DNA from: a virus
Lineage: Duplodnaviria > Heunggongvirae > Uroviricota > Caudoviricetes
Length of the DNA stretch: 12,008 nt
Direction: 5' to 3' (one strand)
Virus record (IMG/VR): IMGVR_UViG_3300035701_000015
Location: 1 to 12,008 of that record
Shown: in pieces, positions 1 through 12,008 of the stretch
Layout: each line of letters begins with the position of its first letter
Numbering within the stretch: the first letter of the stretch is position 1
Position numbers and translations under genes: made by a program
Notes under the pieces: generated by a model
What the model was told of the DNA's origin: nothing
Seen by the model: the letters and a program-made list of their open reading frames with translations, nothing else
The model's database searches: none

Positions 1-17
1 TAGGAGTAGGGTTCTAA

Positions 18-206
18 TTGCAAGTTGAAGTTATGAATATAGAAAAAGCAAAAGAGATCATATGTAAAGAGTTTGAAAAGACTCCAGAGCTAAAATTAAA
101 ATATATTGAAACTATATCTAGCTTATTAGAGAATAAGCTTGAGGTTGATAATCTTAAGGCTCTTCGTGTTGCCACTTCTATCGTTAAGATCCTCTTTGGA
201 GTATAA
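18..206 (+). CDS. Hypothetical protein (62 aa)
   Basis: TTG start with AGGAG upstream (2-6); ATG at 33 is an alternative start. No recognisable motif. Confidence 0.55.
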   Translation: MQVEVMNIEKAKEIICKEFEKTPELKLKYIETISSLLENKLEVDNLKALRVATSIVKILFGV

Positions 207-237
207 GTCTTTCCTAAAACTCACAAGTTAATCACAA

Positions 238-672
238 ATGCCGTACAAAGGTGATACTTGGTTTAGAATTAGAGGAGAGCCCACTTATAGAAGGTTTTTC
301 ATAAGATGTGCATTCGAAGAACCAAGGGATCATATACTACTATGGGATAGTACAATTAGAGAAAATTTAGATAGTCCAGGTAAGTGGACAGTAAGTACTA
401 ATTTAAATCTAACAGAACTTAGTCCGTATTCTATACATTATGAAACTACAAGAAGATTTAACAGTGAAGCTATTAAGATAAAAATAGGCCTATATAGAGA
501 TGGATTTCATATTACTATGAACGGATATGGCGATCTTCGAAAACATCTATTCAACGATGTAAACCAATATGGCTTATGGACGCAAGAAGCAGCCAAAGTT
601 GCACCAATGACTAACGAGCTTTTGAAAAAGATAGAAGCGTATTATTTCAAGCTAATAAATCCACTCAAATAG
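238..672 (+). CDS. Hypothetical protein (144 aa)
   Basis: Long ATG-initiated ORF, co-oriented with its neighbours. No family recognised. Confidence 0.7.
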   Translation: MPYKGDTWFRIRGEPTYRRFFIRCAFEEPRDHILLWDSTIRENLDSPGKWTVSTNLNLTELSPYSIHYETTRRFNSEAIKIKIGLYRDGFHITMNGYGDLRKHLFNDVNQYGLWTQEAAKVAPMTNELLKKIEAYYFKLINPLK

Positions 673-726
673 CTTCGTATTATTCTTATAATTAACATAG
701 ATAAATTATAAACTAGAGGTAATATT

Positions 727-1356
727 ATGAACGACATTCTGGCAAGCAAGGTTCTTGTACTTAATAGACTCTACAGACCGATTGGTGTAATCACAGCACG
801 AGATGCGTTCGTAAAACTCTACATTGAAATCGCAGAAGTTGTTACAGTCGAGAACGGATCATACTCAAACTATGATTTCAATAGTTGGGCCGATATCTCA
901 GACCTGAGAGAAAAACTCGAAGAGCTGGGTGATCTTGACGATGTAGTCTACACTGAGAGATTGACTCTTATTGTACCGAGAGTAATTCGTCTCATCAAGT
1001 ATGACCGAATGCCGAAGCAGACGCTTAAGTTGACTCGAAGAAATGTTTACATCCGAGACGAAAACACTTGCCAGTATTGTGGAAAGAAATTGCCGACTGA
1101 CAAGTTGAATATTGACCACGTAGTTCCGAAGTCTCAAGGCGGAAAGAACACGTGGGAAAATCTCGTATGCTCTTGCTTCAATTGCAATAGCAAGAAGGCT
1201 GGAAAGACTCCCGTACAAGCTCGTATGAAACTTAAGAAGCCAGCTCTCAAGCCGAAGTTCAATCCAGCTTTGAAAGTTCACATTTCTTCTAGGAAATATG
1301 AGGCTTGGACTTCGTTTATATCAGAGTCGTATTGGAATATAGAACTCGAAGAATAA
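727..1356 (+). CDS. HNH endonuclease (McrA/COG1403-like; VLVLN...PRVIRL...RD..CQYCG type)
   Basis: Motifs CQYCG, NIDHVVPKSQGGKNTWENLVCSCFNCNSKK. SD GAGGT at 716-720. Followed by a terminator. Confidence 0.92.
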   Translation: MNDILASKVLVLNRLYRPIGVITARDAFVKLYIEIAEVVTVENGSYSNYDFNSWADISDLREKLEELGDLDDVVYTERLTLIVPRVIRLIKYDRMPKQTLKLTRRNVYIRDENTCQYCGKKLPTDKLNIDHVVPKSQGGKNTWENLVCSCFNCNSKKAGKTPVQARMKLKKPALKPKFNPALKVHISSRKYEAWTSFISESYWNIELEE

Positions 1357-1360
1357 ACAG

Positions 1361-1386
1361 AGCGGCCTTAACTGGCCGCTTTTTTT
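1361..1386 (+). terminator. Intrinsic terminator
   Basis: AGCGGCC/GGCCGCT 7-bp stem with a 6-nt loop and a run of T, 4 nt after the HNH stop codon. Confidence 0.85.
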
Positions 1387-1409
1387 ATGTGTGTGTCAAA
1401 GATAAATAC

Positions 1410-1619
1410 GTGGCTAATAAAAACAAAATTTTTAAATATGAATGGCGCGGTGACAATATAGGTTTTGCTGTTTTTTATGAAGAAGATAGATACTTCTGGG
1501 TAGCTCTTGATAGCGAAACGAAAAAGATCTCATCGGGTTTTCAAGATGTTAGCGGTTTTCAAGAAAGTAAACAAGTTGAAATAAGAGAATTTTTTGAGGC
1601 TATTTTTGGAAATTTATAA
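1410..1619 (+). CDS. Hypothetical protein, tandem paralog A (about 69 aa)
   Basis: Start moved to GTG 1410 because the 1305 start of the ORF track spans the HNH end and the terminator. Shares K(F/Y)KY.W.G..IGFA...EE..Y.WVA and a C-terminal FF.AIF with the next ORF. Confidence 0.68.
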   Translation: MANKNKIFKYEWRGDNIGFAVFYEEDRYFWVALDSETKKISSGFQDVSGFQESKQVEIREFFEAIFGNL

Positions 1620-1857
1620 ATACAAGTGGACAGGCGGAATTGGTTTTGCTATTCTTCTTTTTGACGAAGAAAAAGGTTATCTTTGGGTTGCTGACCCAAC
1701 AAGCGATTCTTACGAAGGTTCTGGAGTTTTATACGGACACAAAGAAGATAAAAAGCGATTAATGACAACAGAAAAATCGCTAATAAAAATAAACCAAATT
1801 CCTCGAGATATAATACATTATTTTTTTAAGGCTATTTTTGAACCACGAGTAGCATAA
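1594..1857 (+). CDS. Hypothetical protein, tandem paralog B
   Basis: Clear similarity to the upstream ORF. TTG 1606 (GAGG at 1596-1599) is an alternative start. Confidence 0.68.
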   Translation: MRLFLEIYKYKWTGGIGFAILLFDEEKGYLWVADPTSDSYEGSGVLYGHKEDKKRLMTTEKSLIKINQIPRDIIHYFFKAIFEPRVA

Positions 1858-1887
1858 TTGATTTTATAGTTTTAACAGGAGGAAAAC

Positions 1888-2037
1888 ATGATTTTAATAG
1901 TAATAGCATTAATCATATGTGCTTATGTCGTTGGTTGGAACTGGCATGAACAACTAAACGCTGAGATTGTAAAAGCAGTAAAATGGGTTGGGCAGCAGAT
2001 CGTGAAGCTTTGGAAAGCTATTTGGAAAAAGAAGTAG
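1888..2037 (+). CDS. Small membrane protein (49 aa), absent from the ORF track
   Basis: Strong SD AGGAGG at 1878-1883. MILIVIALIICAYVVGWNWHEQLNAEIVKAVKWVGQQIVKLWKAIWKKK has one hydrophobic helix followed by an amphipathic Trp/Lys helix. Confidence 0.75.
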   Translation: MILIVIALIICAYVVGWNWHEQLNAEIVKAVKWVGQQIVKLWKAIWKKK

Positions 2038-2040
2038 GTA

Positions 2041-2051
2041 TTCGCATAAAT
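2041..2051 (+). promoter_or_regulatory. TTCGCATAAAT motif copy 1 (candidate phage promoter)
   Basis: Intergenic. Identical copy at 7602-7612 and a one-mismatch copy at 11094-11104. Confidence 0.3.
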
Positions 2052-2061
2052 CGGATAGTAT

Positions 2062-2301
2062 ATGAAAACGATAGAATACTACACGGTGGGACAAAACGAT
2101 TCGGCTGCTTCAATATTGAGGCGCTTAGATAAAAGATATAATCTATCGAACATATACCCGATTTCTCAACCTGTTAGTTTTATGGGTAATGCTAAAGTTT
2201 TAGAAATAAGAATAGTAAATAGTAATGCAAATATAAAAGTAGATGGACCGGGATTCATAATAGACTCAATTTATAATAAACTCAGAGAAAGAGAAAGATA
2301 A
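2062..2301 (+). CDS. Hypothetical protein (79 aa)
   Basis: ATG ORF following the repeated motif. 8 of its 10 Ile codons are ATA. Confidence 0.65.
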   Translation: MKTIEYYTVGQNDSAASILRRLDKRYNLSNIYPISQPVSFMGNAKVLEIRIVNSNANIKVDGPGFIIDSIYNKLRERER

Positions 2302-2363
2302 TGATTATGATAATCACCACAATCACTACACAGAATACGGATCCCCAAACAGATTCTGCGTAA
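2301..2363 (+). CDS. Candidate Thr/Ile-rich leader peptide MIMIITTITTQNTDPQTDSA
   Basis: ATG overlaps the upstream stop (TAATG). 6 Thr and 4 Ile in 20 codons. Ends just before an antiterminator/terminator pair that precedes tRNA-Thr. Confidence 0.45.
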   Translation: MIMIITTITTQNTDPQTDSA

Positions 2364-2386
2364 ATTGTGGGAAGTTATATAACGTT

Positions 2387-2416
2387 AGGGCTTCCCATAT
2401 AAGGAAGCCCTTTTTT
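2387..2416 (+). terminator. Intrinsic terminator (possible attenuator)
   Basis: AGGGCTTCC/GGAAGCCCT 9-bp stem, 7-nt loop, T6 tract. An alternative pairing 2366-2376 with 2389-2399 is available. Confidence 0.85.
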
Positions 2417-2417
2417 A

Positions 2418-2448
2418 TTGACATTTCGACGATATGGTATGGTATAGT
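2418..2448 (+). promoter_or_regulatory. Sigma70-type promoter for tRNA-Thr(TGT)
   Basis: TTGACA at 2418-2423 and extended -10 TGG-TATAGT at 2440-2448. The 19-nt spacer is long. Confidence 0.55.
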
Positions 2449-2458
2449 AGTAATAGAT

Positions 2459-2541
2459 GCCGAGGTCGGATAGTGGTTGATTCCACCTGATTTGTAATCA
2501 GGATCTGCAAAGACACGTGGGTTCGAATCCCACCCTCGGCT
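2459..2541 (+). tRNA. tRNA-Thr(TGT) with a long variable arm
   Basis: Acceptor GCCGAGG/CCTCGGC, U73. Anticodon arm CCTGA-TTTGTAA-TCAGG (TGT at 2493-2495). T-loop TTCGAAT. 14-nt variable region with TCT-GCAA-AGA hairpin. No CCA. Confidence 0.9.
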
Positions 2542-2590
2542 AATTCGAACTTTCCAAACAAGATAATTACGATGTCCTTGGAGGTTCGAA

Positions 2591-3148
2591 ATGGTTTGTG
2601 AAAACTGTGGCAAAGACCATAATGGTAGCTATGGGTCAGGCAGGTTCTGCTCTGGGCCATGTGCTAGATGTTTCAGTACAAAAAACAATAGAGACGAGAT
2701 AAATAGAAAAGTATCTGTTAGTCTCGGTGGAACCGGAGAAACAAAAGAAACAATCTGTGAAAATTGTGGCACTCAATTTCGTAGAAAAAACAAGAACGCT
2801 AAATACTGTTCTTTGAGTTGTCAGCATGCACATCAATGGGAATTGTATAAAAGAAAAGTAGAACTCATTGGTAGTTTTGAAATTAGTTTAAATGGTAGCG
2901 GCTCAAAAAGAGCCAAGAAGTATTTAGCAGAAGTGAGAAGCGATAAATGCGAAATTTGTGGTATTACAGATTGGTTAAGTAAACCACTAATCAAAGTTTT
3001 AGATCATATAGACGGAGATGCTATAAATAACAAACTAGACAATCTCAGATTACTTTGTTCAAATTGTGATAGCCAGCTTGAAACATATAAAAGTAAAAAC
3101 AGAAAGAGTAAAAGATTGTATAGACGTAGAATCGATAAAAGCTTATAA
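2591..3148 (+). CDS. Free-standing HNH endonuclease with N-terminal Zn-binding repeats (probable homing endonuclease)
   Basis: Two CxxC...CxxxC units, then CEICG...LDHIDGDAINNKLDNLRLLCSNC. Lies between two tRNA genes. Confidence 0.88.
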   Translation: MVCENCGKDHNGSYGSGRFCSGPCARCFSTKNNRDEINRKVSVSLGGTGETKETICENCGTQFRRKNKNAKYCSLSCQHAHQWELYKRKVELIGSFEISLNGSGSKRAKKYLAEVRSDKCEICGITDWLSKPLIKVLDHIDGDAINNKLDNLRLLCSNCDSQLETYKSKNRKSKRLYRRRIDKSL

Positions 3149-3149
3149 T
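3121..3149 (+). promoter_or_regulatory. Sigma70-type promoter embedded in the HNH 3' end, driving tRNA-Leu
   Basis: TAGACG (3121-3126), 17-nt spacer, TATAAT (3144-3149). Confidence 0.6.
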
Positions 3150-3155
3150 TGAATT

Positions 3156-3239
3156 GCAGCTGTGGTGGAATCTGGGATACACGTAGCGTTCAGAACGCTA
3201 TGCTCGTAGAGCTTGAGAGTTCAAATCTCTCCAGCTGCA
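3156..3239 (+). tRNA. tRNA-Leu(CAG)
   Basis: GCAGCTG/CAGCTGC acceptor, A73. TAGCG-TTCAGAA-CGCTA anticodon arm. Class II variable arm. T-loop TTCAAAT. No CCA. Confidence 0.95.
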
Positions 3240-3249
3240 AAGGTGATAC

Positions 3250-3945
3250 ATGATTTACTTAACGGGCGATACTCATTCTGATGTTAGAAGGTTTAGTAGT
3301 GAAGTGTTCCCTGCTGGTAAAGATTTAACCAAAAGAGATTATATGATTATTCTCGGTGACTTCGGTCTCATTTGGAATAAAGACGTCTCAAGTGATTATG
3401 AAAAATATTGGATTAATTGGTTAAGCGAGAAACCTTGGACTACTCTTTTTCTTGATGGAAATCACGAGAACTTTGATAGACTCGATAAGTTGCCGCAAAT
3501 GAAAATGCTTAGTGGTGAAGTTGGAATTGTCAGCGATAGCATATTTCATCTCAAAAGAGGGGAGATTTATAATATTGAAGGTATCAGACTTTTTACATTT
3601 GGAGGAGCCAACTCTATTGATAAAGCCCAAAGAGTTGAGAATGTTAGTTGGTGGTCTAGAGAGCTTCCAAATTTTGCAGAGTATGATCACGCTTTAGAGA
3701 ATTTAGAAAAACATGATTGGGACGTAAATTTGATATTGACTCATGACGCACCAGAATCAATTTACGATATTATAGCTCAAAAATATTTTTCTACTAAAAG
3801 ACCAAACTATGATTTGCCCAAGTTTCTTGAAGAAGTAAAAAAGAAAACTCAATTTGAGTCTTGGGTCTTTGGACACTTTCATATTAATGATACTTTTGAA
3901 AAACGTTTTACGTGTTTGTATGAAAAAATTGTTTTGTTAGAATAA
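3250..3945 (+). CDS. Calcineurin-like metallophosphoesterase
   Basis: Motifs GDTH, GDFG, GNHENF, THDAP and FGHFH. SD AAGGTG. Confidence 0.92.
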   Translation: MIYLTGDTHSDVRRFSSEVFPAGKDLTKRDYMIILGDFGLIWNKDVSSDYEKYWINWLSEKPWTTLFLDGNHENFDRLDKLPQMKMLSGEVGIVSDSIFHLKRGEIYNIEGIRLFTFGGANSIDKAQRVENVSWWSRELPNFAEYDHALENLEKHDWDVNLILTHDAPESIYDIIAQKYFSTKRPNYDLPKFLEEVKKKTQFESWVFGHFHINDTFEKRFTCLYEKIVLLE

Positions 3946-4019
3946 GGAGGCGTAGTTCAGCTGGTTAGAACGCTAGCCTGTCAAGCTAGAGGCCGCGGGT
4001 TCGAGTCCCGTCGCTTCCG
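3946..4019 (+). tRNA. tRNA-Asp(GTC)
   Basis: GGAGGCG/CGCTTCC acceptor, G73. CTAGC-CTGTCAA-GCTAG anticodon arm. T-loop TTCGAGT. Begins at the base after the upstream TAA. Confidence 0.95.
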
Positions 4020-4033
4020 AAGGAGAGACTAAT

Positions 4034-4588
4034 ATGAAATGGGTAAAATGGAGAAGCGGTCACAGTTCTGGATATAGTAAATGGAAATACATGCCACTCT
4101 ATGTGGATAAGGCTACAAAAGATATCGAAGAATCAGTAGAATACGAAATGCAAGAAAAAGCAGAAGAGTATTCTTGGTCTGAGCATTTTAGAGGAATTGA
4201 TTGGGAAATCATAGATCATAAGAAAGTTCCCAACATCAAAATAGAGGAGATTCACAAGAACTTGTTAGATTCTGTAGAAGATCTGAAAAGATCTATCAAA
4301 GTAAAAGAAGAAAACTCAATCCTTATCAAGAAACTTTTTGGCAAAGGGTCAAAGACTGACCCTGATGAAATTGCTTATGCTAAACATAGGAAAAAGATAG
4401 ATGCTCAATTGAAAAGACTTGAAAAAGAGAGGCAAGCTGAATATGAGAAATCAAAATCGAATAAGAGTTTAAGAACGATATGCAAATGTTGCGATGGAAA
4501 AGGATGGAAAAATAATAAATTTAATATCACAACATGTCCCGTTTGTAACGGAGAAGGAACTGTGAGTCTGATTGTTAACGGGCTGTAG
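4034..4588 (+). CDS. Hypothetical protein with a C-terminal DnaJ-type Zn finger
   Basis: SD AAGGAG. CKCCDGKG...CPVCNGEG (CxxCxGxG repeats). The stop codon lies inside tRNA-Pro. Confidence 0.8.
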   Translation: MKWVKWRSGHSSGYSKWKYMPLYVDKATKDIEESVEYEMQEKAEEYSWSEHFRGIDWEIIDHKKVPNIKIEEIHKNLLDSVEDLKRSIKVKEENSILIKKLFGKGSKTDPDEIAYAKHRKKIDAQLKRLEKERQAEYEKSKSNKSLRTICKCCDGKGWKNNKFNITTCPVCNGEGTVSLIVNGL

Positions 4589-4652
4589 CGTAGCGGTCTA
4601 ACGCACTTGGCTGGGGGCCAAGGGATCGCCAGTTCAAGTCTGGCCAGCCCGA
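4579..4652 (+). tRNA. tRNA-Pro(GGG)
   Basis: CGGGCTG/CAGCCCG acceptor, A73. CTTGG-CTGGGGG-CCAAG anticodon arm. T-loop TTCAAGT. Confidence 0.95.
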
Positions 4653-4655
4653 AAT

Positions 4656-4835
4656 ATGACAAAGAAGCAAATAACAATAAAACTTCTCAAAGAGAAAACA
4701 TGTGAAAACTGTATTACTTATAAAATCCATCATTCTTGTTCGGTGAAAGACTTGAATAATGGAACTTGTAGAAAGTTTTCTAAAGGATCAATGATTGAAC
4801 CGCCATATCCATGGCCAAGGCCAGCAAAGAGGTAA
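4656..4835 (+). CDS. Small Cys-rich hypothetical protein (59 aa), absent from the ORF track
   Basis: MTKKQITIKLLKEKTCENCITYKIHHSCSVKDLNNGTCRKF... has four Cys and exactly fills the gap between tRNA-Pro and the next ORF. No SD. Confidence 0.6.
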   Translation: MTKKQITIKLLKEKTCENCITYKIHHSCSVKDLNNGTCRKFSKGSMIEPPYPWPRPAKR

Positions 4836-4840
4836 AGCGA

Positions 4841-5056
4841 ATGGCTAGAGGAAAAAAGACTGTATTCAAACTCAAAAGCATAATGGCAGAAGTTGAGTGC
4901 AGTAAATGTGGAAAGTTTAAAATCAAACTCAGCGAAAACGATTTTCACGCAAGTGAATCAGAGTGTGATTTGTGCGGTAGCCATTTATCAATATCTATTA
5001 ATGTTGTTTGCCCTAAGTGCAAAAAATATGATTCAATAGATATTAATACTTGGTGA
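4841..5056 (+). CDS. Small Zn-finger protein (71 aa)
   Basis: Three CxxC motifs (CSKC, CDLC, CPKC). ATG 4841 is preferred over 4811 because of AGAGGT at 4828-4833. Confidence 0.75.
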   Translation: MARGKKTVFKLKSIMAEVECSKCGKFKIKLSENDFHASESECDLCGSHLSISINVVCPKCKKYDSIDINTW

Positions 5057-5071
5057 GGTGGATTACGAACT

Positions 5072-5145
5072 GCCAACTTAGCTTAGACGGTTAAAGCACT
5101 TGTCCCGTAAATAAGAGATCCCGGGTTCGACTCCCGGAGTTGGCT
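5072..5145 (+). tRNA. tRNA-Thr(CGT), with C at position 33
   Basis: GCCAACT/AGTTGGC acceptor, U73. CTTGT-CCCGTAA-ATAAG anticodon arm. T-loop TTCGACT. Confidence 0.88.
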
Positions 5146-5164
5146 TAAACTTTCAATTCTGAAT

Positions 5165-5237
5165 GCCCTTGTAGCTCAGACGGTAGAGCACCAACTTGGT
5201 AAGTTGGGGGTCTCCAGTTCGATCCTGGACATGGGCT
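5165..5237 (+). tRNA. tRNA-Thr(GGT)
   Basis: GCCCTTG/CATGGGC acceptor (one U-U mismatch), U73. CCAAC-TTGGTAA-GTTGG anticodon arm. Confidence 0.93.
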
Positions 5238-5253
5238 AAAGTCGGGAGGCAAT

Positions 5254-5475
5254 ATGAAAGTAGAAATAGATTTCCAAGATTTCAAAGAAGTAAGGCCAAA
5301 AACTAAAAAGTGGTACATCTGTATTGTAAAAGAATATCATGGCAACGAATGCCACAATACTTTACGTAGTGGATTTTGGGAAGATGGTCAGTTTTGGAGC
5401 AATGAGCGCGAAGACGCTTGGGGCATAGGAGAAGTTTTATATTGGGCAGATGCTGATGATTTTAACTCAAGATAA
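5254..5475 (+). CDS. Hypothetical protein (73 aa), loosely DUF551-like
   Basis: SD GGGAGG. Trp-rich with a C-terminal VLYWA reminiscent of the VTHWM motif. The family call is weak. Confidence 0.7.
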   Translation: MKVEIDFQDFKEVRPKTKKWYICIVKEYHGNECHNTLRSGFWEDGQFWSNEREDAWGIGEVLYWADADDFNSR

Positions 5476-5501
5476 TTTCGATGAGGGTTTATAATAAAGG
5501 T

Positions 5502-5693
5502 ATGAAAAACAAAAACTATCTTCAAGAAAATCTGCTTGACGGAAGAACCTTCGAAGATGTCCTCGATGAAGCTCTCGCTGAAGTTGTGAACGGGGAATGT
5601 AAAGAGGTATCTTGGGAGGATGAAATTGAACTTATTCGAACTCTTGAGAGAGATTCTCTTGGAGTCGGAGACTTTCACTCTAAAAGAAACTAA
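5502..5693 (+). CDS. Probable antitoxin (acidic, RelB/DinJ-type C-terminus)
   Basis: LDEALAEVVNGECKEVSWEDEIELI resembles the neutralising tails of RelE-family antitoxins. Lies directly upstream of, and overlaps, a YafQ-like ORF. ATG 5481 is an alternative start. Confidence 0.55.
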   Translation: MKNKNYLQENLLDGRTFEDVLDEALAEVVNGECKEVSWEDEIELIRTLERDSLGVGDFHSKRN

Positions 5694-5985
5694 AGCTTAT
5701 AGAAAAGGTCTTCCAGCATATATCTCGAAAGTAAAAGAAGCTTCTAAAAAATTAGAAGACATATTCAAGTATTTGCGTGTTGGTCAGATGCCACCAAGAG
5801 AATTGAATAGGCCACATAAAATAGAGAAAGGGAAAAGATGGTCTCATATACCTGGTGACATCTGGGACATTCATATTGGTTCCGCTAATTCAGACTGGAT
5901 TTTACTTATCAACAGAGATGAAGCTAATAAAATAATCAATTTGCTTGCAATAGGCACGCATTCAAAATTAGCTAATCTTCTCTGA
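5620..5985 (+). CDS. YafQ-like (RelE superfamily) mRNA interferase
   Basis: RPHKI...WDIHI...SDWILLI...LLAIGTHSKL matches the YafQ pattern H...R(D/E)xH(I/V)..DW(I/L)LIY...GTH. Confidence 0.8.
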   Translation: MKLNLFELLREILLESETFTLKETKAYRKGLPAYISKVKEASKKLEDIFKYLRVGQMPPRELNRPHKIEKGKRWSHIPGDIWDIHIGSANSDWILLINRDEANKIINLLAIGTHSKLANLL

Positions 5986-5988
5986 CAT

Positions 5989-6060
5989 TCGCTCGTAGTG
6001 TAATGGTAACACGACAGACTCTGGATCTGTATACTTGGGGTTCAAGTCCTCACGGGCGAG
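5989..6060 (+). tRNA. tRNA-Gln(CTG)
   Basis: TCGCTCG/CGGGCGA acceptor, G73. ACAGA-CTCTGGA-TCTGT anticodon arm. Confidence 0.93.
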
Positions 6061-6067
6061 CATATAT

Positions 6068-6138
6068 TCCGGTGTCGTATAATGGCAGTACGTTGGGCTT
6101 TGGACCCGAAGGTCGAGGTTCGATTCCTTGCACCGGAG
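6068..6138 (+). tRNA. tRNA-Gln(TTG)
   Basis: TCCGGTG/CACCGGA acceptor, G73. TTGGG-CTTTGGA-CCCGA anticodon arm. Confidence 0.95.
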
Positions 6139-6182
6139 AAAACATTTTAAAGTCAAGATAATATCGCTATGGAGGTTCTAAC

Positions 6183-6416
6183 ATGTCTGACGTTGAAAAA
6201 GAATTTGATGAAAGAGAATTAGAAGATGAATTTGGTGTTGAAGGAGACGACGAAGATGAAGAGCTTGAAAGCGAAGAAACCAAAGAAGACGAAGAAGAGT
6301 ATATCGACGAAGACCTCGATAAAGACGAAGAGTCCGAAGAAGTCAAAAAAGACAAATTCGGCTTCGACAAATATGACGTCGAAGATGAAGAAGATCCCCT
6401 CGACGGCTCCGAGTGA
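6183..6416 (+). CDS. Extremely acidic small protein (77 aa)
   Basis: SD GGAGG at about 6170-6174. 43 of 77 residues are Asp or Glu. Confidence 0.8.
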   Translation: MSDVEKEFDERELEDEFGVEGDDEDEELESEETKEDEEEYIDEDLDKDEESEEVKKDKFGFDKYDVEDEEDPLDGSE

Positions 6417-6429
6417 AAATTATTAAAAT

Positions 6430-7401
6430 ATGGGACTAACATATAAAGACACTGGAGTCGACATCGATAAGGGTGATCAGTTTGTAGAGATCATCAAGAA
6501 GAGGCTTCCTCCGAAAGATCAAGCTAACATTGGTCTATTCGGAGGACTCTTCGATATATCTTCTCTCGGTTATAAAAATCCCGTTCTTGTTTCAAGCACT
6601 GATGGCGTTGGCACAAAGTTGCTCGTCGCACGAGAAGCAAATAAGTTCGACGCTATTGGAATTGACCTCGTTGCTATGTGTGTAAATGATGTGATACCAC
6701 TTGGAGCGAAGCCACTCTTTTTCCTTGATTACCTCGCAACCGCTTATCTCGACCTTGAAACAGCTACAACAATTATTGATGGTATTTTAGAAGGATGTCG
6801 CCAAGCAGGGTGCTCTCTCCTCGGTGGTGAAACTGCTGAGATGCCGGGTGTATATAGAGAAGGTGATTATGAGCTCGCAGGTTTCACAGTTGGAATTGTA
6901 GAACGAGACAAGATCATTTACGGAAAGACGATCATCGAGGGAGATGCTCTTGTTGGAATACGCTCGAGCGGAATTCATAGCAACGGGCTCAGTCTTGCAA
7001 GAGCAGCGCTAGTAAATTTTAAATTTGAAGAGTCTTTATTACAAGAGCTCCTCGTTCCTACTCGCATTTACGTAAAGCTTGTTCTCGATCTCCTTACGAA
7101 AACAGAAATAAAAGGAATTGCCCACATAACAGGTGGCGGAATTTACGGAAATACAAAAAGACTTTTACCTAAAAATCTTGATCTTAACATTCACTGGGAC
7201 ATCTTACAACCGCAACCGATTTTCAAAATCTTGCAAGAAGCGGGCAATATTGAAGACGAAGAGATGAGGAAAACTTTCAATCTCGGCGTCGGGATGGTAT
7301 TCATTGTAAATCTTGAAAAAGAAAAAGAGTTCTGTTCTCTCCTCACCGAGATGGGAGAAGAGCCAATTTCAATTGGTGAAGTTGTGAAACAGCATATATA
7401 A
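6430..7401 (+). CDS. purM: Phosphoribosylformylglycinamidine cyclo-ligase (AIR synthetase)
   Basis: Motifs YKDTGVDID, STDGVGTK, GIDLVAMCVND, PLFFLDY, GGETAEMPG, GIHSNGLSL, AHITGGG and TFNLGVG. Confidence 0.97.
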   Translation: MGLTYKDTGVDIDKGDQFVEIIKKRLPPKDQANIGLFGGLFDISSLGYKNPVLVSSTDGVGTKLLVAREANKFDAIGIDLVAMCVNDVIPLGAKPLFFLDYLATAYLDLETATTIIDGILEGCRQAGCSLLGGETAEMPGVYREGDYELAGFTVGIVERDKIIYGKTIIEGDALVGIRSSGIHSNGLSLARAALVNFKFEESLLQELLVPTRIYVKLVLDLLTKTEIKGIAHITGGGIYGNTKRLLPKNLDLNIHWDILQPQPIFKILQEAGNIEDEEMRKTFNLGVGMVFIVNLEKEKEFCSLLTEMGEEPISIGEVVKQHI

Positions 7402-7404
7402 GAA

Positions 7405-7525
7405 TAAGGCATAACTCTAACGACTACGGGTCAGGCTGGCGAGGTCGATCCCAGCTAAGGGTTAAGTCGAAAGACTGAGCGTATCTAGCTTTAGCAAGCT
7501 GAACCCTGACTCGATTTATGCCTTA
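7405..7525 (+). ncRNA. Unassigned structured RNA (four-way junction on a long basal stem)
   Basis: 10-bp stem 7405-7414/7516-7525 and 9-bp stem 7427-7435/7505-7513, enclosing three hairpins including AGTC-GAAA-GACT. Confidence 0.6.
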
Positions 7526-7601
7526 AGATAAAAATGGATTTCCCGGAATAATAATTTCTCAGAGTGATTTCATAAATTTTCTAAGATGCTCTTCTTTTGG
7601 T

Positions 7602-7612
7602 TTCGCATAAAT
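7602..7612 (+). promoter_or_regulatory. TTCGCATAAAT motif copy 2
   Basis: Intergenic, 27 nt before the DHH start codon. Confidence 0.3.
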
Positions 7613-7639
7613 AAGCATATACTTTTCTAGGGAGATAAT

Positions 7640-8578
7640 ATGATGGTACACATTTTTTATCACAATAAAGATTTAGATGGACATTGTTCTGGAGCTATTG
7701 CAAAATACTACCATTTACAAAGTGGCACTTCGGTAGTTATGCACCCATATGATTATGGTGAGCCTTTCCCATTCGACAAAGTTCAAGATGGCTTAGACGT
7801 ATGGATGGTTGATATAACTTCTAGTCCATATGAAGTTCTGCTAGAAGTTCGCAAAAGATACAACCTTTTCGTCATCGACCATCACAAATCTTTCATCGAA
7901 AGCGAAGTCTGTAAAAAGATACCTGGTGTATTTGTAAACGGAACTGCAGCTTGTGAGCTAACTTGGAATCATTGTTTTCCAGACACAATGATGCCAAACA
8001 TAGTTCATAGACTCGCTCAGTATGATATCTGGGACAATAAGGACAAAAACATTTGGGACAAAGAGATAATGCCTCATCAAATGGGCATAAAGATGTATAA
8101 TACTGATCCGAGCGATGTTGTCGGATATGGCTTTTGGAAAAATTACTTCGACGACTTTTTCCGAAAACCTGAAGACGATCTAACTCCGAAGTTTGTTGCA
8201 ATAGAAGACGCAATAAGGAAAACTGGAACTACTATCATTAAATATCAAGGTCAAGAAGACGACAACACTGTTGGTTTTTATTCGTTCCCGGCTGAGTTTG
8301 AAGACATGAGAGCTATTTGTCTTAATAGCGCAAGATTCAATTCACAAGTATTCAAATCAGTTTGGGATAATGAAAAGTATGACATTATGCTTGCTTGGGT
8401 CAGCGTGAAAGGCGACTATTATAAAGTTTCACTTTATACCGACAAAGAAGGAATTGACGTAAGTAATATAGCAAAGAGATTTGGTGGCGGCGGTCACAAA
8501 CAAGCTGCTGGATTCATATGCCACAAGTTTTCAATAAGCAAATCCAGAGGAATTAAATTCATAACTGTAGAACCGTAG
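7640..8578 (+). CDS. DHH/DHHA1 family phosphoesterase (NrnA/NrnB-like)
   Basis: Motifs HNKDLDG, VDIT, IDHH, YDIW and GGGGHKQAAGF. SD GGGAG. Confidence 0.92.
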   Translation: MMVHIFYHNKDLDGHCSGAIAKYYHLQSGTSVVMHPYDYGEPFPFDKVQDGLDVWMVDITSSPYEVLLEVRKRYNLFVIDHHKSFIESEVCKKIPGVFVNGTAACELTWNHCFPDTMMPNIVHRLAQYDIWDNKDKNIWDKEIMPHQMGIKMYNTDPSDVVGYGFWKNYFDDFFRKPEDDLTPKFVAIEDAIRKTGTTIIKYQGQEDDNTVGFYSFPAEFEDMRAICLNSARFNSQVFKSVWDNEKYDIMLAWVSVKGDYYKVSLYTDKEGIDVSNIAKRFGGGGHKQAAGFICHKFSISKSRGIKFITVEP

Positions 8579-8588
8579 AGGTTAATAT

Positions 8589-9467
8589 ATGATTCCAGTT
8601 TTAAACGTGAAGGGAAAGACTTTACCTGAAGCTTATGAAAACTCTTTGATAGAACTTTATCGAAGCGGCGAAAGAATTAAAACTCAATACGACAATCCTG
8701 ACGATCTGCCTTCTGTAGATGCAACTGTAAACATAACAATTGAAGAACCTGAAGCAGACCCTATGATTTATAAAATCTTTCCTGGTGGAATCGAAGATCT
8801 TCGTGAATATGTGATGGAGCTTCAAGGCGCAAAAGATCACTGGGTCAAGAATATGAACGATCCAGAAGATAAACGTTGGGAATATACTTATCATCAAAGA
8901 TTAGTTGCTTGGGGGACCTGGAAAGAGAGCAACAAAATAGTGTCAATAACTAGACCGGTGAATCAATTTCAGGCAATGATTAAAAAACTTATTGATGCAC
9001 CTTATACACGCAGAGCTCAGGCTGTTACTTGGATGCCGTCTTTAGATAACATCGTCTACGATCCGCCCTGTTTGCAGTCAATCTGGTGTAGATTAACAGA
9101 CGAACTAGATGGTACATTAGCTCTGAACGCAAATATTAGGTTCCGAAGCAACGACGCCTGGGGCGCTGCATTTATGAACATGTTTGGTTTGACCATGCTC
9201 ATCAGATTAGAGATAGCTAACCCAGTTGAAGAAAGTTTAGGTAAACCGGTGAAGCTGGGTAGGATTAACTGGCAAGCTGATAGTTATCATGTTTACGGCA
9301 AAGATATCAAAGCTCTTGTGCAAAGAGTCATTAATAATTTCAAACCTCTTACTGAGAAAGTATATTATTTTTACAGTCCTGAAGTTCAAGAGATCTGGAA
9401 AGAAGCTTCATCTAAGATTAAGGATAAAATTAGAAAATACGACGAAGAGCATTCACTGGGGGAATAA
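8589..9467 (+). CDS. Thymidylate synthase (ThyA) superfamily enzyme, divergent/archaeal-like type
   Basis: Motifs YTYHQRL, RRAQAVTW, PPCLQ (catalytic Cys), FRSNDAWGAAFMN and DSYHVY. SD GAGGT. Confidence 0.88.
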   Translation: MIPVLNVKGKTLPEAYENSLIELYRSGERIKTQYDNPDDLPSVDATVNITIEEPEADPMIYKIFPGGIEDLREYVMELQGAKDHWVKNMNDPEDKRWEYTYHQRLVAWGTWKESNKIVSITRPVNQFQAMIKKLIDAPYTRRAQAVTWMPSLDNIVYDPPCLQSIWCRLTDELDGTLALNANIRFRSNDAWGAAFMNMFGLTMLIRLEIANPVEESLGKPVKLGRINWQADSYHVYGKDIKALVQRVINNFKPLTEKVYYFYSPEVQEIWKEASSKIKDKIRKYDEEHSLGE

Positions 9468-9468
9468 A

Positions 9469-9693
9469 GTGATTTGGATCGGCTTAATACTTTGGTATAT
9501 TATAGGCTTTTACTTTATGTTAAAAACGGGTATTCATACATTTGGTGGAGTTACTATTTTTGTACTATTGTCTTCTATGTTGATGGGAATTGGGGGACTG
9601 TTTATAATGGTTACATATTTAGATACTATTGGTAAAATAAACTTAAAACTCCCACCTTGGTGTGATACATATATTTGGAAAAAGAAAGGATAG
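9469..9693 (+). CDS. Small two-helix membrane protein (74 aa)
   Basis: GTG 9469 with GGGGGA upstream. The 9289 start of the ORF track overlaps the ThyA-like gene. Two hydrophobic stretches. Confidence 0.7.
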   Translation: MIWIGLILWYIIGFYFMLKTGIHTFGGVTIFVLLSSMLMGIGGLFIMVTYLDTIGKINLKLPPWCDTYIWKKKG

Positions 9694-9697
9694 AGAC

Positions 9698-9967
9698 ATG
9701 ATTGATTATTCTATTTTGCCAGAACATATGCAAGAAGGAATGAAGCTTTATATTGAGAAGGGAATTAAACCTGGACATTTTCTACGAGCAGTTCTAGAAA
9801 ATAATCTTGTTGAATCGTTTGCACGTGCAGATGACATTAATATTAAGAATATGTTCAATTGGGCTGATTTCATGTACAATCAATGCCCAGAAGAAGCTCG
9901 AGGAAGTAAAGAGAAAGTAGAACAGTGGATTCAGAGTTTTGAAAGAGACATAAGTGACAATAGATGA
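9698..9967 (+). CDS. Hypothetical protein resembling a conserved phage family (89 aa)
   Basis: SD AAAGGA and ATG 9698. LPEHM...Y...GIKPGHFLRAVLENNL...ARAD...GSKEKV..W resembles a phage family of unknown function (recognised from memory, not searched). Confidence 0.78.
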   Translation: MIDYSILPEHMQEGMKLYIEKGIKPGHFLRAVLENNLVESFARADDINIKNMFNWADFMYNQCPEEARGSKEKVEQWIQSFERDISDNR

Positions 9968-10148
9968 AGCAAAGAAATTCATCGGTAGGGAAGCTAGCTT
10001 TTCTAAAATTACTGGTAAAATAGTTAATGTACGCAAATTACCGTTTAGCGATATAATTGTAGCTTTTCTCGATGATGAAAGCGTTGTAAATATAGAAATT
10101 CTAAAGATCAAAGAAGAACCGAAAACTATAATTGAGGAAACAAAGTAG
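9954..10148 (+). CDS. Hypothetical protein (64 aa)
   Basis: GTG start coupled to the upstream ORF; fills the gap before the next SD. Confidence 0.65.
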   Translation: MTIDEAKKFIGREASFSKITGKIVNVRKLPFSDIIVAFLDDESVVNIEILKIKEEPKTIIEETK

Positions 10149-10159
10149 GAGGCAGTAAA

Positions 10160-10525
10160 ATGAATAAACTATTGATAGCAGTAATAGCTATAATTGTAGT
10201 TCTTGTATCATCAATTGCTTTTGCAACAAATTCGAAAGGAGAAGTAGAAGTATCGTTCTATGATTTTGGTCCTTACGAAGAAATGCTAACGATAGATGCA
10301 CAGTTCGGTATAGCAATTGGTCAAGATGGAAAGTTTCAGTTTTATCCATATATGAGATACTTTGCACCGGTAACTATAGTTCCTGGTAAAGATTTTGTTC
10401 TATCAGATCTTAGCTTAGGTACTTCATTTATATTGGGTAAATATTCAAGTTTTAGTGTTGAAGCTACAATGGACCAAAACACTAAATATAAAGGTACAAA
10501 ATCAAGTTTTAAGCTTGAATGGTGA
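10160..10525 (+). CDS. Secreted beta-strand-rich protein (121 aa)
   Basis: SD AGGAGG. Signal peptide MNKLLIAVIAIIVVLVSSIAFA. Alternating-residue strands and a C-terminal Trp (SSFKLEW). Confidence 0.8.
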   Translation: MNKLLIAVIAIIVVLVSSIAFATNSKGEVEVSFYDFGPYEEMLTIDAQFGIAIGQDGKFQFYPYMRYFAPVTIVPGKDFVLSDLSLGTSFILGKYSSFSVEATMDQNTKYKGTKSSFKLEW

Positions 10526-10543
10526 TGAAGAGAGGGCAGAGAA

Positions 10544-10861
10544 ATGAAGATCTTGATGATAATTTTAGCATTTTTTATACTTAGCACAACTATGTTATTT
10601 GCCGAAGGGAAAGACAACTTGGGAGAAATCGGATTTGACATCAACTATTTAGACCCTGACCAATCTTTATTCACTTTTGAGATGTCGCCACAGGTGAAGA
10701 TCGGTAGAAACAGTTTTATAGAGTTTTTAATAAGAGTTGATGTTAGCGCTCAATATATACCAGCTGAACTACGCTATTGTCCCAGGTTAGATAAAGAAGC
10801 ATATGATCCGTCTTATTTTGTGTATAATCCAAATAGTTATTTGGGACTAAACTTTACCTAA
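10544..10861 (+). CDS. Secreted beta-strand-rich protein (105 aa)
   Basis: Signal peptide MKILMIILAFFILSTTMLFA. Aromatic-rich alternating strands, ending YLGLNFT. Confidence 0.75.
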   Translation: MKILMIILAFFILSTTMLFAEGKDNLGEIGFDINYLDPDQSLFTFEMSPQVKIGRNSFIEFLIRVDVSAQYIPAELRYCPRLDKEAYDPSYFVYNPNSYLGLNFT

Positions 10862-10952
10862 ATATTGTAGATATCAAAACTAGCATCAATACTCTGGCGA
10901 CTTCATTACTGAGTTAGAGTAAATCTTAAATGAAACTAGGAGAAAATATTAA

Positions 10953-11060
10953 ACGGCTTATTTACACTGTCATTCCTGTGGGTGGAGTCAAGATGATTTT
11001 TGGACTCGTAAATACAATCCTATAACAAAAATTTTAGAACGACGTAAAGTGGTTGATTAA
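10953..11060 (+). pseudogene. Possible decayed or ACG-initiated CxxC ORF (xAYLHCHSCGWSQDDFW...)
   Basis: AGGAG at 10938-10942, then ACG at SD-compatible spacing. Protein-like reading frame of only 35 codons. Confidence 0.4.
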
Positions 11061-11093
11061 GCCAAAAGAAAATTTTGATATAGATTAAGAGTT

Positions 11094-11104
11094 TTCGCAT
11101 AGAT
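11094..11104 (+). promoter_or_regulatory. TTCGCATAGAT motif copy 3 (one mismatch)
   Basis: Intergenic, 33 nt before the ATG at 11138. Confidence 0.28.
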
Positions 11105-11137
11105 AATTCAAGATAAAGCAAAAGGAGTTTAAATTCA

Positions 11138-11218
11138 ATGTTGAAACAGTTAGCAATCTGGCACATATCGCTACCTCTCCCAAGATATAATATCGAAGGT
11201 GGAGTAGCAAGTGGATAG
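11138..11218 (+). CDS. Candidate leader peptide MLKQLAIWHISLPLPRYNIEGGVASG (26 aa)
   Basis: AGGAG at 11123-11127. The stop codon abuts an antiterminator arm. Contains one ATA codon (11165-11167). Confidence 0.45.
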   Translation: MLKQLAIWHISLPLPRYNIEGGVASG

Positions 11219-11249
11219 GGCAGAGAGCTATCTGTAGATTTGAGTTTAA

Positions 11250-11286
11250 AGCTCTCTGCTAAAAGATTTAGTAGAGAGCTTTTTTT
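11250..11286 (+). terminator. Intrinsic terminator with a competing upstream pairing
   Basis: 14-bp stem 11250-11263/11267-11280 plus T6. The 5' arm can instead pair with GGCAGAGAGCT (11219-11229). Confidence 0.85.
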
Positions 11287-11314
11287 GTTGATAGTTTCGA
11301 TGCATTATTATAAT
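11285..11314 (+). promoter_or_regulatory. Sigma70-type promoter for the tRNA-Ile/tRNA-Asn/RNase P RNA unit
   Basis: TATAAT at 11309-11314, with TTGTTG (18-nt spacer) or TTGATA (15-nt spacer) as the -35. Confidence 0.5.
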
Positions 11315-11344
11315 TATATTCAGACGGTCTCGGTCTTTGAAATA

Positions 11345-11417
11345 CCTCGGGTAGCTTAAAGGTTAAAGCAGGCTCCTTATAAGGGCAAGAGTGGTGGTTC
11401 AATTCCATCTCCGAGGA
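11345..11417 (+). tRNA. tRNA-Ile(TAT)
   Basis: CCTCGGG/TCCGAGG acceptor, A73. D-stem GCTT/AAGC. Anticodon loop CTTATAA (TAT at 11378-11380) on a stem with a G27-A43 mismatch. T-loop TTCAATT. Confidence 0.85.
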
Positions 11418-11426
11418 CATCCCACC

Positions 11427-11471
11427 GCCCTTGGCTATTTAAACTCCGCCAGTCAGTCTACAGCTGAGGGC
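11427..11471 (+). other. Inter-tRNA hairpin
   Basis: GCCCTTGGCT/AGCTGAGGGC 10-bp stem (2 G-U pairs) with a 25-nt loop. Confidence 0.45.
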
Positions 11472-11477
11472 ACTCTT

Positions 11478-11549
11478 TCCCCTGTAGCTCAACGGTAGAG
11501 CGTCTGCCTGTTAAGCAGTTGGTTGCAGGTTCGATTCCTGCTGGGGGAG
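11478..11549 (+). tRNA. tRNA-Asn(GTT)
   Basis: TCCCCTG/TGGGGGA acceptor, G73. Anticodon loop CTGTTAA. T-loop TTCGATT. Confidence 0.95.
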
Positions 11550-11604
11550 CAGATCTAATGCTAGCCTAAATTATGAAGAGTTAGCTTAGATAATTAAATT
11601 GATG

Positions 11605-11687
11605 GAGTGTTTGGCTGAAAGTCCTAGACTATATTATGAATCTAAATTTGCTGGCGTTAGCTAGCTCGGGAAGTAGGCGAAACACTC
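11605..11687 (+). ncRNA. Unassigned structured element upstream of the RNase P RNA
   Basis: 8-bp closing stem GAGTGTTT/AAACACTC, inner CCTA/TAGG pairing and a GCTGGC-GTTA-GCTAGC hairpin. Confidence 0.4.
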
Positions 11688-11709
11688 ATTTTAAGAAGAA
11701 ACAGAAAAT

Positions 11710-11903
11710 AACTCTGAGCCATCGCTGTAGTAGCAATACTACAGAGGAAACTCCAGACATCACTGCTTAATGTGGGAGGCTAACGCCGCTATCACCACAG
11801 AGGATGCAACACAAACAGACTGAGAGGGTGAGCAGCTCTATGAAGTCGGGTAGTGGCATTAGATAGATGATGGCATAAAACAGAATCTGGGTTATTCAGA
11901 GTT
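11710..11903 (+). ncRNA. rnpB: Minimal RNase P RNA (about 194 nt)
   Basis: P1 11710-11717/11896-11903. P2 GCCATC/GATGGC. P3 8-bp hairpin with GCAA loop. CR-I GAGGAAACTCC and CR-V AACAGAATCTGGGTTA form P4 with a bulged U. CR-IV AGATAGATGA. CR-II/III-like ATGCAACACAAACAGAC and GGTGAGCAG. Confidence 0.9.
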
Positions 11904-11915
11904 TAGGTTGAGCTG

Positions 11916-12008
11916 ATGCAGGGAATCTATATTATCAAAAACAAAGTAAATAAAAAAGCCTACATCGGCTCTTCTATTACAATTGAAGATAGACTTGAAA
12001 GACATAAA
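11916..12008 (+). CDS. GIY-YIG endonuclease (N-terminal part, runs off the window)
   Basis: MQGIYIIKNKVNKKAYIGSS...RLERH contains the GIY, YIG and conserved Arg signature. Confidence 0.88.
   Translation, partial: MQGIYIIKNKVNKKAYIGSSITIEDRLERHK

Follow-up and report, generated by a model that had tools for sequence, protein, structure and literature searches.

Between a protein gene and a tRNA gene of an uncultured giant phage lies a short open reading frame (ORF) rich in threonine codons, followed by an intrinsic terminator, and the question raised by this arrangement is whether the two together regulate the tRNA genes behind them. The locus is found in the first 12 kb of a 77.6-kb IMG/VR virus record (IMGVR_UViG_3300035701_000015, Caudoviricetes; completeness estimate 39 %), and the whole stretch analysed, positions 1 to 12,008 of that record, is hereafter called the window. 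An earlier note on this DNA had claimed a leader-peptide attenuator in front of a phage tRNA-Thr gene, and this claim is supported here by nine conserved loci and by covarying helices. The elements are present and conserved, their helices covary, and tRNA-Thr(UGU) accompanies the module in all nine loci. The locus is read here as a ribosome-mediated (leader-peptide) transcription attenuator before the first tRNA block of the phage, which would gate, or in this phage boost, transcription of the block; this reading is put no higher than likely, since all of its functional steps are inferred.

Leader frame and alternative helices

The features on which the reading depends are the following.

Positions 2062 to 2301, + strand: upstream ORF of 79 amino acids, with no family assigned, whose stop codon overlaps the start of the leader (TAATG)
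Positions 2301 to 2363, + strand: leader ORF of 20 codons, with 6 Thr, 4 Ile, 2 Gln, 2 Asp, 1 Asn and 1 Pro
Positions 2299 to 2336, + strand: region 1, the 5' strand of a long leader hairpin, with its core (2317-2323) within Thr and Ile codons
Positions 2353 to 2387, + strand: region 2, the 3' strand of the leader hairpin, which spans the stop codon and contains the antiterminator arm 2366-2376
Positions 2387 to 2399, + strand: region 3, the 5' arm and first loop bases of the terminator, with either region 2 or region 4 as its partner
Positions 2387 to 2416, + strand: intrinsic terminator (helix 3:4) with a 9-bp stem, a 7-nucleotide (nt) loop and six T; −15.3 kcal/mol
Positions 2425 to 2443, + strand: phage promoter-like motif TTCGA-N8-TATGGT, 16 nt upstream of tRNA-Thr(UGU)
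Positions 2459 to 2541, + strand: tRNA-Thr(UGU), 83 nt, class II (long variable arm), the first gene of its block (ARAGORN; Rfam tRNA 59.9 bits)

The 20-codon ORF was found at 2301-2363, as proposed earlier, with its start in the TAATG overlap, and the codon count agrees with the one given before: four Ile codons and six Thr codons of all four types (ACC, ACA three times, ACT and ACG). Thr accounts for 6 of 19 residues of the leader, compared with 5.1 % in the long ORFs of the phage (binomial P 2.6e-4).

The terminator predicted at 2387-2416 was borne out, its stem (2387-2411) consisting of nine pairs, six of them G-C, with the six T at 2411-2416. The arm 2366-2376, two nt after the stop codon of the leader, had been claimed to form 11 bp with 2389-2399, and both folding and shuffling confirmed this duplex, in which three pairs are G-U. 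Its strength was reached in none of 1000 dinucleotide shuffles of the spacer, and with the leader excluded the antiterminator is the minimum-energy fold of 2360-2420 (−17.2 kcal/mol). Folding of 2290-2420, suggested earlier as a check, gave a leader hairpin followed by the terminator (−36.9 kcal/mol, z-score (z) = −5.3 versus shuffles), and it added a helix that is absent from the earlier note: in the full-length fold the Thr/Ile codons 2317-2323 pair with 2364-2370 behind the stop codon (helix 1:2), while the terminator stays intact. Because helices 1:2 and 2:3 both use bases 2366-2370, they are mutually exclusive, and since helix 1:2 competes with the antiterminator, the locus has the full 1:2 / 2:3 / 3:4 layout of the trp type. 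The footprint of a ribosome terminating at the stop codon would reach region 2; the gap between stop codon and arm 2 is 2 nt in the window and 1-10 nt over the nine loci described below.

No T-box or other riboswitch family of Rfam scored in 2250-2560, even at an expectation value (E) ≤ 10. The leader families Thr_leader (RF00506, 14.0 bits) and Phe_leader (RF01859, 25.9 bits) remained below the gathering score of 55, and the match to Phe_leader was confined to the terminator.

The module in related loci

Related loci were sought through the neighbouring 79-amino-acid protein, a handle that is independent of the leader. Nine loci were compared: the window, L002 (a homologue on a 906-bp contig), L003 (from a metagenome scan), and L004, L005, L006, L013, L014 and L015 (by profile search). 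The 79-amino-acid protein of the eight relatives is 42-70 % identical to that of the window. All nine loci keep the Thr-rich frame, the antiterminator, the terminator and tRNA-Thr(UGU) as the first downstream tRNA. The case named earlier as refuting the attenuator, a terminator kept while the Thr-rich frame and the antiterminator are lost, was looked for among the nine loci and none was found.

In each locus a purine-rich stretch precedes a frame that starts with ATG and runs for 17-21 codons, 5-8 of them for Thr; this frame alone is open in all nine, the other two being interrupted by stop codons in several loci. Thr contributes 5-8 of 16-20 residues per locus, against the background of 5.1 % (P 4e-7 to 3e-3), and Thr, Gln, Asn and Asp together make up 58-75 % of leader residues, against a background of 19 %. 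The peptide pattern Thr-Thr-Gln-Asn/Asp ... Gln ... Asp recurs among the leaders. Between the leaders of the window and L002 there are two indels, each of 3 nt, and two synonymous changes. Across the loci the stop codon is TAA, TGA or TAG at one and the same place, all four codons (ACG, ACA, ACT and ACC) are used in different loci at one aligned Thr position, and the minimum numbers of changes at codon positions 1, 2 and 3 are 18, 16 and 29. The frame persists even where the neighbouring 79-amino-acid protein has diverged to 42 % identity. Judged by this pattern of change, the leader frame behaves as coding.

The RNA elements are likewise retained, with terminator stems of 8-11 bp followed by 5-7 T, and antiterminators (2:3) of 6-11 bp. 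Free energies range from −10 to −24 kcal/mol for helix 1:2, from −9 to −15 kcal/mol for helix 2:3 and from −11 to −18 kcal/mol for helix 3:4, and in every locus the fold consists of a leader hairpin and the terminator (z −2.3 to −7.2). The duplex between the spacer and arm 3 is better than in shuffles (P ≤ 0.014) in eight of the nine loci.

Pairs were counted on the nine-sequence alignment A5, in which columns 31-37 with 84-90 are the core of helix 1:2. This core is 92 % paired, with both sides changed in four of seven pairs, and the terminator helix 3:4 is 94 % paired, with both sides changed in four of nine pairs. Taken together, the two helices are 93 % paired with double-sided change in 8 of 16 pairs, compared with pairing of at most 60 % in slid controls, and their joint covariation score is 0.392 versus 0.205 in shuffles, none of 500 of which reached 0.392. 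The changes in helix 1:2 tie coding to non-coding bases, A-U having become G-C at columns 33/88 and U-A having become C-G at columns 37/84. For helix 2:3 the pairing is 93 % (slid controls ≤ 69 %), with one column changed on both sides and three changed on one side yet still paired. In L003 and L013 the double-sided column has gone from C-G to U-A in concert, arm 3 having U in place of C and arms 4 and 2 each having A in place of G. Comparison with relatives had been proposed in order to look for conserved Thr codons and covarying antiterminator pairs; the Thr codons are conserved, and the covariation of the antiterminator amounts to one compensatory column.

Gene order and the position of candidate promoters vary among the loci. 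The earlier note had placed a sigma70-like promoter downstream of the terminator. A putative promoter is indeed found there, the phage motif at 2425-2443 being the better candidate; the alternative is the pair TTGACA (2418-2423) and TATAGT (2443-2448) with a 19-nt spacer. The motif TTCGA-N8-TAnnnT occurs three times in the window (2425-2443, 5477-5495 and 11296-11314), against 0.29 expected, and the + strand of the record has nine such sites where about two would be expected, three of the nine standing directly before tRNA genes. The spacing of this TTCGA-N8-TATAAT-like candidate phage promoter is unfit for a sigma-70 −35/−10 pair. The motif lies between the terminator and the tRNA or next ORF in the window, L002 and L004, and variants of it do so in L003 and L015; it precedes the leader in L005, L006 and L014, with a variant at this place in L015. 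In L005, L006 and L014 the order is promoter, leader, terminator and gene, with no room for a second promoter behind the terminator: the gap from T-run to tRNA is 2 nt in L014 and 10 nt in L005, and in L006 about 10 nt separate the T-run from a small ORF. In these three loci read-through appears, from the gene order, to be the sole route to expression of the tRNA.

The leader ORF lies directly behind the upstream gene in the window, L002, L004 and L013. The 79-amino-acid gene adjoins the module in every locus other than L003, in which a 112-amino-acid gene stands between it and the leader. Inserts are found between the terminator and tRNA-Thr(UGU) in three loci, namely an HNH gene in L013 and a small Zn-ribbon ORF in L006 and L015. 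The latter, of 53-59 amino acids (L006 2005-2166, L015 1456-1635), contains two Cys-x-x-Cys pairs, and if the attenuator model is true it would share the regulation of the tRNAs.

More distant homologues of the 79-amino-acid protein (L007, L008-L010 and L011-L012) were found without such a module, beside response-regulator or histidine-kinase genes. Public phage records contained no close relative, blastn of 1800-3200, 1-8000 and 2301-2420 giving tRNA-level or chance matches only, and no relative was found among IMG/VR viral contigs by the protein, the 3' half of the tRNA, arm 2 or two arm/terminator patterns. The single match to a GTDB genome contig lies in a GC-rich coding region of Clostridia and was rejected as a chance match.

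tRNA genes, codon match and second cassette

The presence of tRNA-Thr(UGU) downstream of the terminator, as claimed earlier, was confirmed by both ARAGORN and Rfam. The record carries 42 tRNA genes, of which 10 are in the window (ARAGORN). The next strong + strand terminator after 2416 is at 11248-11282, and the eight tRNAs between the two are regarded as the first block. The other seven follow tRNA-Thr(UGU) in one region.

Positions 3155 to 6139, + strand: remaining tRNA block, with Leu(CAG), Asp(GUC), Pro(GGG), Thr(CGU), Thr(GGU), Gln(CUG) and Gln(UUG)

The leader has cognate codons for seven of these eight tRNAs (three Thr, two Gln, Asp and Pro), whereas 2.3 would be expected (P 1.8e-4) from random peptides drawn from the codon usage of the phage. 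Counted by codon, 11 of 19 leader codons are cognate to the leader's own block (expected 3.0) and just 7 of 19 match the 32 anticodons that lie beyond it (expected 15.5). With all nine loci pooled, 34 downstream tRNA genes were seen, and for 29 of them the leader in front contains a cognate codon. The sole tRNA located upstream of a leader, Thr(CGU) in L003, has none. The locus had been described before as a thrL-like attenuator; the attenuator build of that description was retained, but the leader is not purely thrL-like, being multivalent, with codons that match seven of the eight tRNAs of the block.

A second cassette of the same build as the first, ORF, arm and terminator, was found near the end of the window.

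Positions 11138 to 11287, + strand: second cassette
Positions 11138 to 11218, + strand: second leader ORF of 26 codons with stop codon TAG, the arm 11219-11229 following directly

An 11-bp duplex is possible between the arm 11219-11229 and the 5' strand of the terminator 11248-11282, and behind the cassette are a promoter motif (11296-11314) and tRNA-Ile(UAU) at 11345. The region folds with z −5.3, and the arm duplex was matched in none of 2000 shuffles. Of the 32 anticodons that follow, the second leader has codons for 20 (expected 14, P 0.0011), but of the eight in the first block for only two; it contains four different Leu codons, and four Leu tRNAs lie behind it. No relatives of the second cassette were found; contigs of four sediment runs over 10900-11600 yielded identical pieces and cross-hits to tRNA-Asn of other organisms only, with no variation informative for this cassette. 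The phage also encodes a tRNA with the anticodon CUA (record G000 15239-15311), and the second leader ends in TAG; with read-through of this TAG, the frame of the second leader would run on through arm 2 and the entire terminator until TAA at 11357-11359. Another terminator before a tRNA, at 23186-23205 of the record and outside the window, was rejected as a further cassette, since it marks the usual end of a protein gene and lacks both a leader and an alternative pairing.

The form of tRNA-Thr(UGU) itself differs between loci. In the window (2459-2541), L002 (658-740) and L003 (2913-2999) it is 83-87 nt long, with a 3-bp D-stem and a stem-loop variable arm, the stem of which differs compensatorily among the three. 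An ordinary tRNA-Thr(UGU) of 72-74 nt is present at the same place in L004-L006 and L013-L015. The GCC...GGC acceptor stem and U73 are shared by all of them.

Nearly all long ORFs of the record are on the + strand, and DNA of the phage was found in sediment metagenomes; no RNA run was found to contain it. Proteins encoded in the window matched HNH endonucleases, a metallophosphoesterase, a PurM-like protein, a DHH phosphoesterase, a thymidylate-synthase-like protein and a YafQ-like toxin. The block tRNAs in 3155-6139 are interspersed with genes of HNH, phosphoesterase and toxin-like type, the YafQ/ParE-like toxin ORF at 5620-5985 (Pfam YafQ_toxin, E 4e-7) being within the tRNA block. HNH endonuclease genes are located at 727-1356 and 2591-3148 of the window. 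The latter sits between tRNA-Thr(UGU) and tRNA-Leu(CAG), and as L002 and L004 have these two tRNAs side by side, it has the appearance of a mobile insertion.

The 79-amino-acid protein had no match to a Pfam or PHROG family; a profile search gave 65 metagenomic homologues. Its AlphaFold2 model (predicted local distance difference test (pLDDT) score 94) has the order strand-helix-four strands-helix, and no convincing structural match to this model was found (Foldseek E ≥ 0.03; best VIA Z 5.9), so that the protein cannot be named a regulator.

Proposed mechanism, alternatives and known systems

According to the model proposed here, a leader that is untranslated, or that is translated rapidly to its stop codon, would leave region 2 either held by region 1 or covered by the terminating ribosome. 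With region 2 held or covered, the 3:4 terminator would form and transcription would end at 2416. A ribosome stalled in the Thr-rich run, as probably also one stalled at the later Gln, Asp, Asn and Pro codons, would cover region 1; region 2 would then pair with region 3, no terminator would form, and RNA polymerase would continue into tRNA-Thr(UGU) and the later tRNAs. That the leader is translated, that stalling switches the fold and that read-through alters tRNA levels is what the arrangement of the sequence suggests. As the codons of the leader are read by the very tRNAs encoded behind it, the circuit would be a negative feedback on tRNA supply. In the window, read-through can only add to tRNA expression, since the promoter motif at 2425-2443 lies behind the terminator.

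Several observations weigh against this model. The terminator is the minimum-energy fold in all nine loci, even when a ribosome footprint is masked over the Thr run, and because folding with the masked footprint never flips to the antiterminator, the switch would have to be kinetic and no thermodynamic switch is claimed. The switch of the trp attenuator is likewise generally held to be kinetic. The 2:3 duplex of L005 is no better than shuffles (P 0.53), the covariation of helix 2:3 comes from one clade (L003 and L013), and, the nine loci being related, the counts are not independent events. A promoter-like motif stands behind the terminator in the window, L002, L004 and L003, making the tRNA there independent of read-through, and the leader of the window is at the 3' end of an upstream gene, not at the 5' end of a transcript. 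The match between leader and tRNA codons was noticed post hoc, and when the peptide is held fixed the choice of synonymous codons with respect to the tRNAs is not significant (P 0.087), which places the codon-match signal at the amino-acid level. Coupling of transcription and translation in the host of this phage cannot be assumed.

Some of these observations would fit a small ORF that closes the upstream operon and has a functional micro-protein as its product, in which case the hairpin and T-run would be an ordinary terminator and the pairings by-products, without any sensing. The peptide is conserved beyond Thr (Thr-Thr-Gln-Asn/Asp ... Gln ... Asp), its ORF follows directly on the upstream gene in the window, L002, L004 and L013, the motif behind the terminator in the window, L002, L004 and L003 would restart transcription, and the terminator always wins at equilibrium. 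This explanation is nevertheless considered unlikely, as it would have to accommodate the covariation of helix 1:2 between coding and post-stop non-coding bases (four of seven pairs changed on both sides), an arm 2 that tracks sequence change of the terminator in the L003 clade, and the promoter-leader-terminator-tRNA order of L005, L006 and L014 without space for a second promoter; it also leaves the match of leader codons to downstream tRNAs unexplained. A shade less probable is a genuine RNA switch that is set by a factor acting in trans, either a TRAP/PyrR/LicT-like protein or a tRNA bound in a T-box-like manner, or a hairpin serving as a pre-tRNA RNase site. The three helices are supported independently of translation, and the 79-amino-acid gene adjoins the module in all loci except L003, an adjacency that is partly by construction, because the loci were found through its product. 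Conservation of the frame, start codon, stop position and third-position variation speaks against this reading, the T-box and riboswitch search of 2250-2560 (E ≤ 10) was negative, and the 79-amino-acid protein has no recognisable RNA-binding fold, is encoded apart from the leader in L003 (by a gene) and in L005, L006 and L014 (by a promoter), and has more distant homologues in loci without the module.

The third alternative concerns this phage in particular and is given as little weight as the trans-acting factor: the cassette would no longer regulate, the tRNAs being driven by the promoter at 2425-2443 and the cassette being an inherited insulator that ends upstream transcription. The motif does lie between terminator and tRNA and recurs before other tRNAs of the record, and the leader relies on transcripts from the upstream gene. 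A relic should, however, decay, whereas neither the window nor the other three loci that share its promoter position have lost the frame, the Thr codons or any of the three helices; moreover, read-through and promoter activity can be additive.

If the attenuator model is taken further, the leader may be a codon 'barcode' of the tRNA block that it gates, the region of 42 tRNAs being split into blocks with leader-attenuators of their own. This extension is tentative and is held with clearly less conviction than the attenuator itself. If it is true, each leader measures the decoding capacity for exactly the codons of its block, and the virus runs a self-correcting tRNA supply, for example while host tRNAs are degraded or cleaved. 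A link to host anticodon nucleases, raised in the earlier note, is speculation. The control of tRNA genes in large phages, and their reaction to the loss of host tRNAs, are poorly understood, and the cassette makes this question testable with short synthetic constructs. It also offers a sequence-based reading of which tRNAs a phage treats as one regulatory unit.

The known targets of leader-peptide attenuation are genes for amino-acid biosynthesis, together with a small number for synthetases or resistance. A full-text literature search, with most subscription journals outside its reach, found no description of leader-peptide attenuation of tRNA genes in phage or cell. Amino-acid operons of enterobacteria are controlled by the leader-peptide attenuators trpL, hisL, pheL and leuL and the multivalent thrL and ilvL. 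The phage element resembles the trpL type in having a short ORF rich in regulatory codons, a region 1 within the ORF that pairs with a region 2 at the stop codon, a region 2 that pairs alternatively with the 5' arm of the terminator, and a terminator that is more stable than the antiterminator. With more than one amino acid represented in its leader, it is closest to thrL (Thr and Ile) and ilvL. It differs from the trpL type in that the genes downstream are phage tRNA genes and not biosynthetic enzymes, so that the product replenishes the sensed molecule, and in that the leader of the window follows a gene, not a promoter, with a second promoter behind the terminator. Nor is it a sequence-level member of the Thr_leader and Phe_leader families of Rfam.

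The T-box riboswitch binds uncharged tRNA directly, does not need translation and has a conserved T-box sequence and specifier loop. The phage element would share with it a terminator/antiterminator switch that responds to the state of specific tRNAs, but it carries a conserved coding frame and has no T-box match. The leader attenuator pheM controls the phenylalanyl-tRNA synthetase operon pheST of E. coli and is similar in exerting leader-peptide control over a component of the translation apparatus for the sensed amino acid; in contrast to the phage cassette, it is cellular, has a synthetase as its target and senses a single amino acid. In the phage, what would be sensed is the speed of translation over certain codons, and what is made are the tRNAs that decode them, so that the loop would be a direct feedback. 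The logic of the textbook attenuator appears to be pointed at tRNA genes, in a virus.

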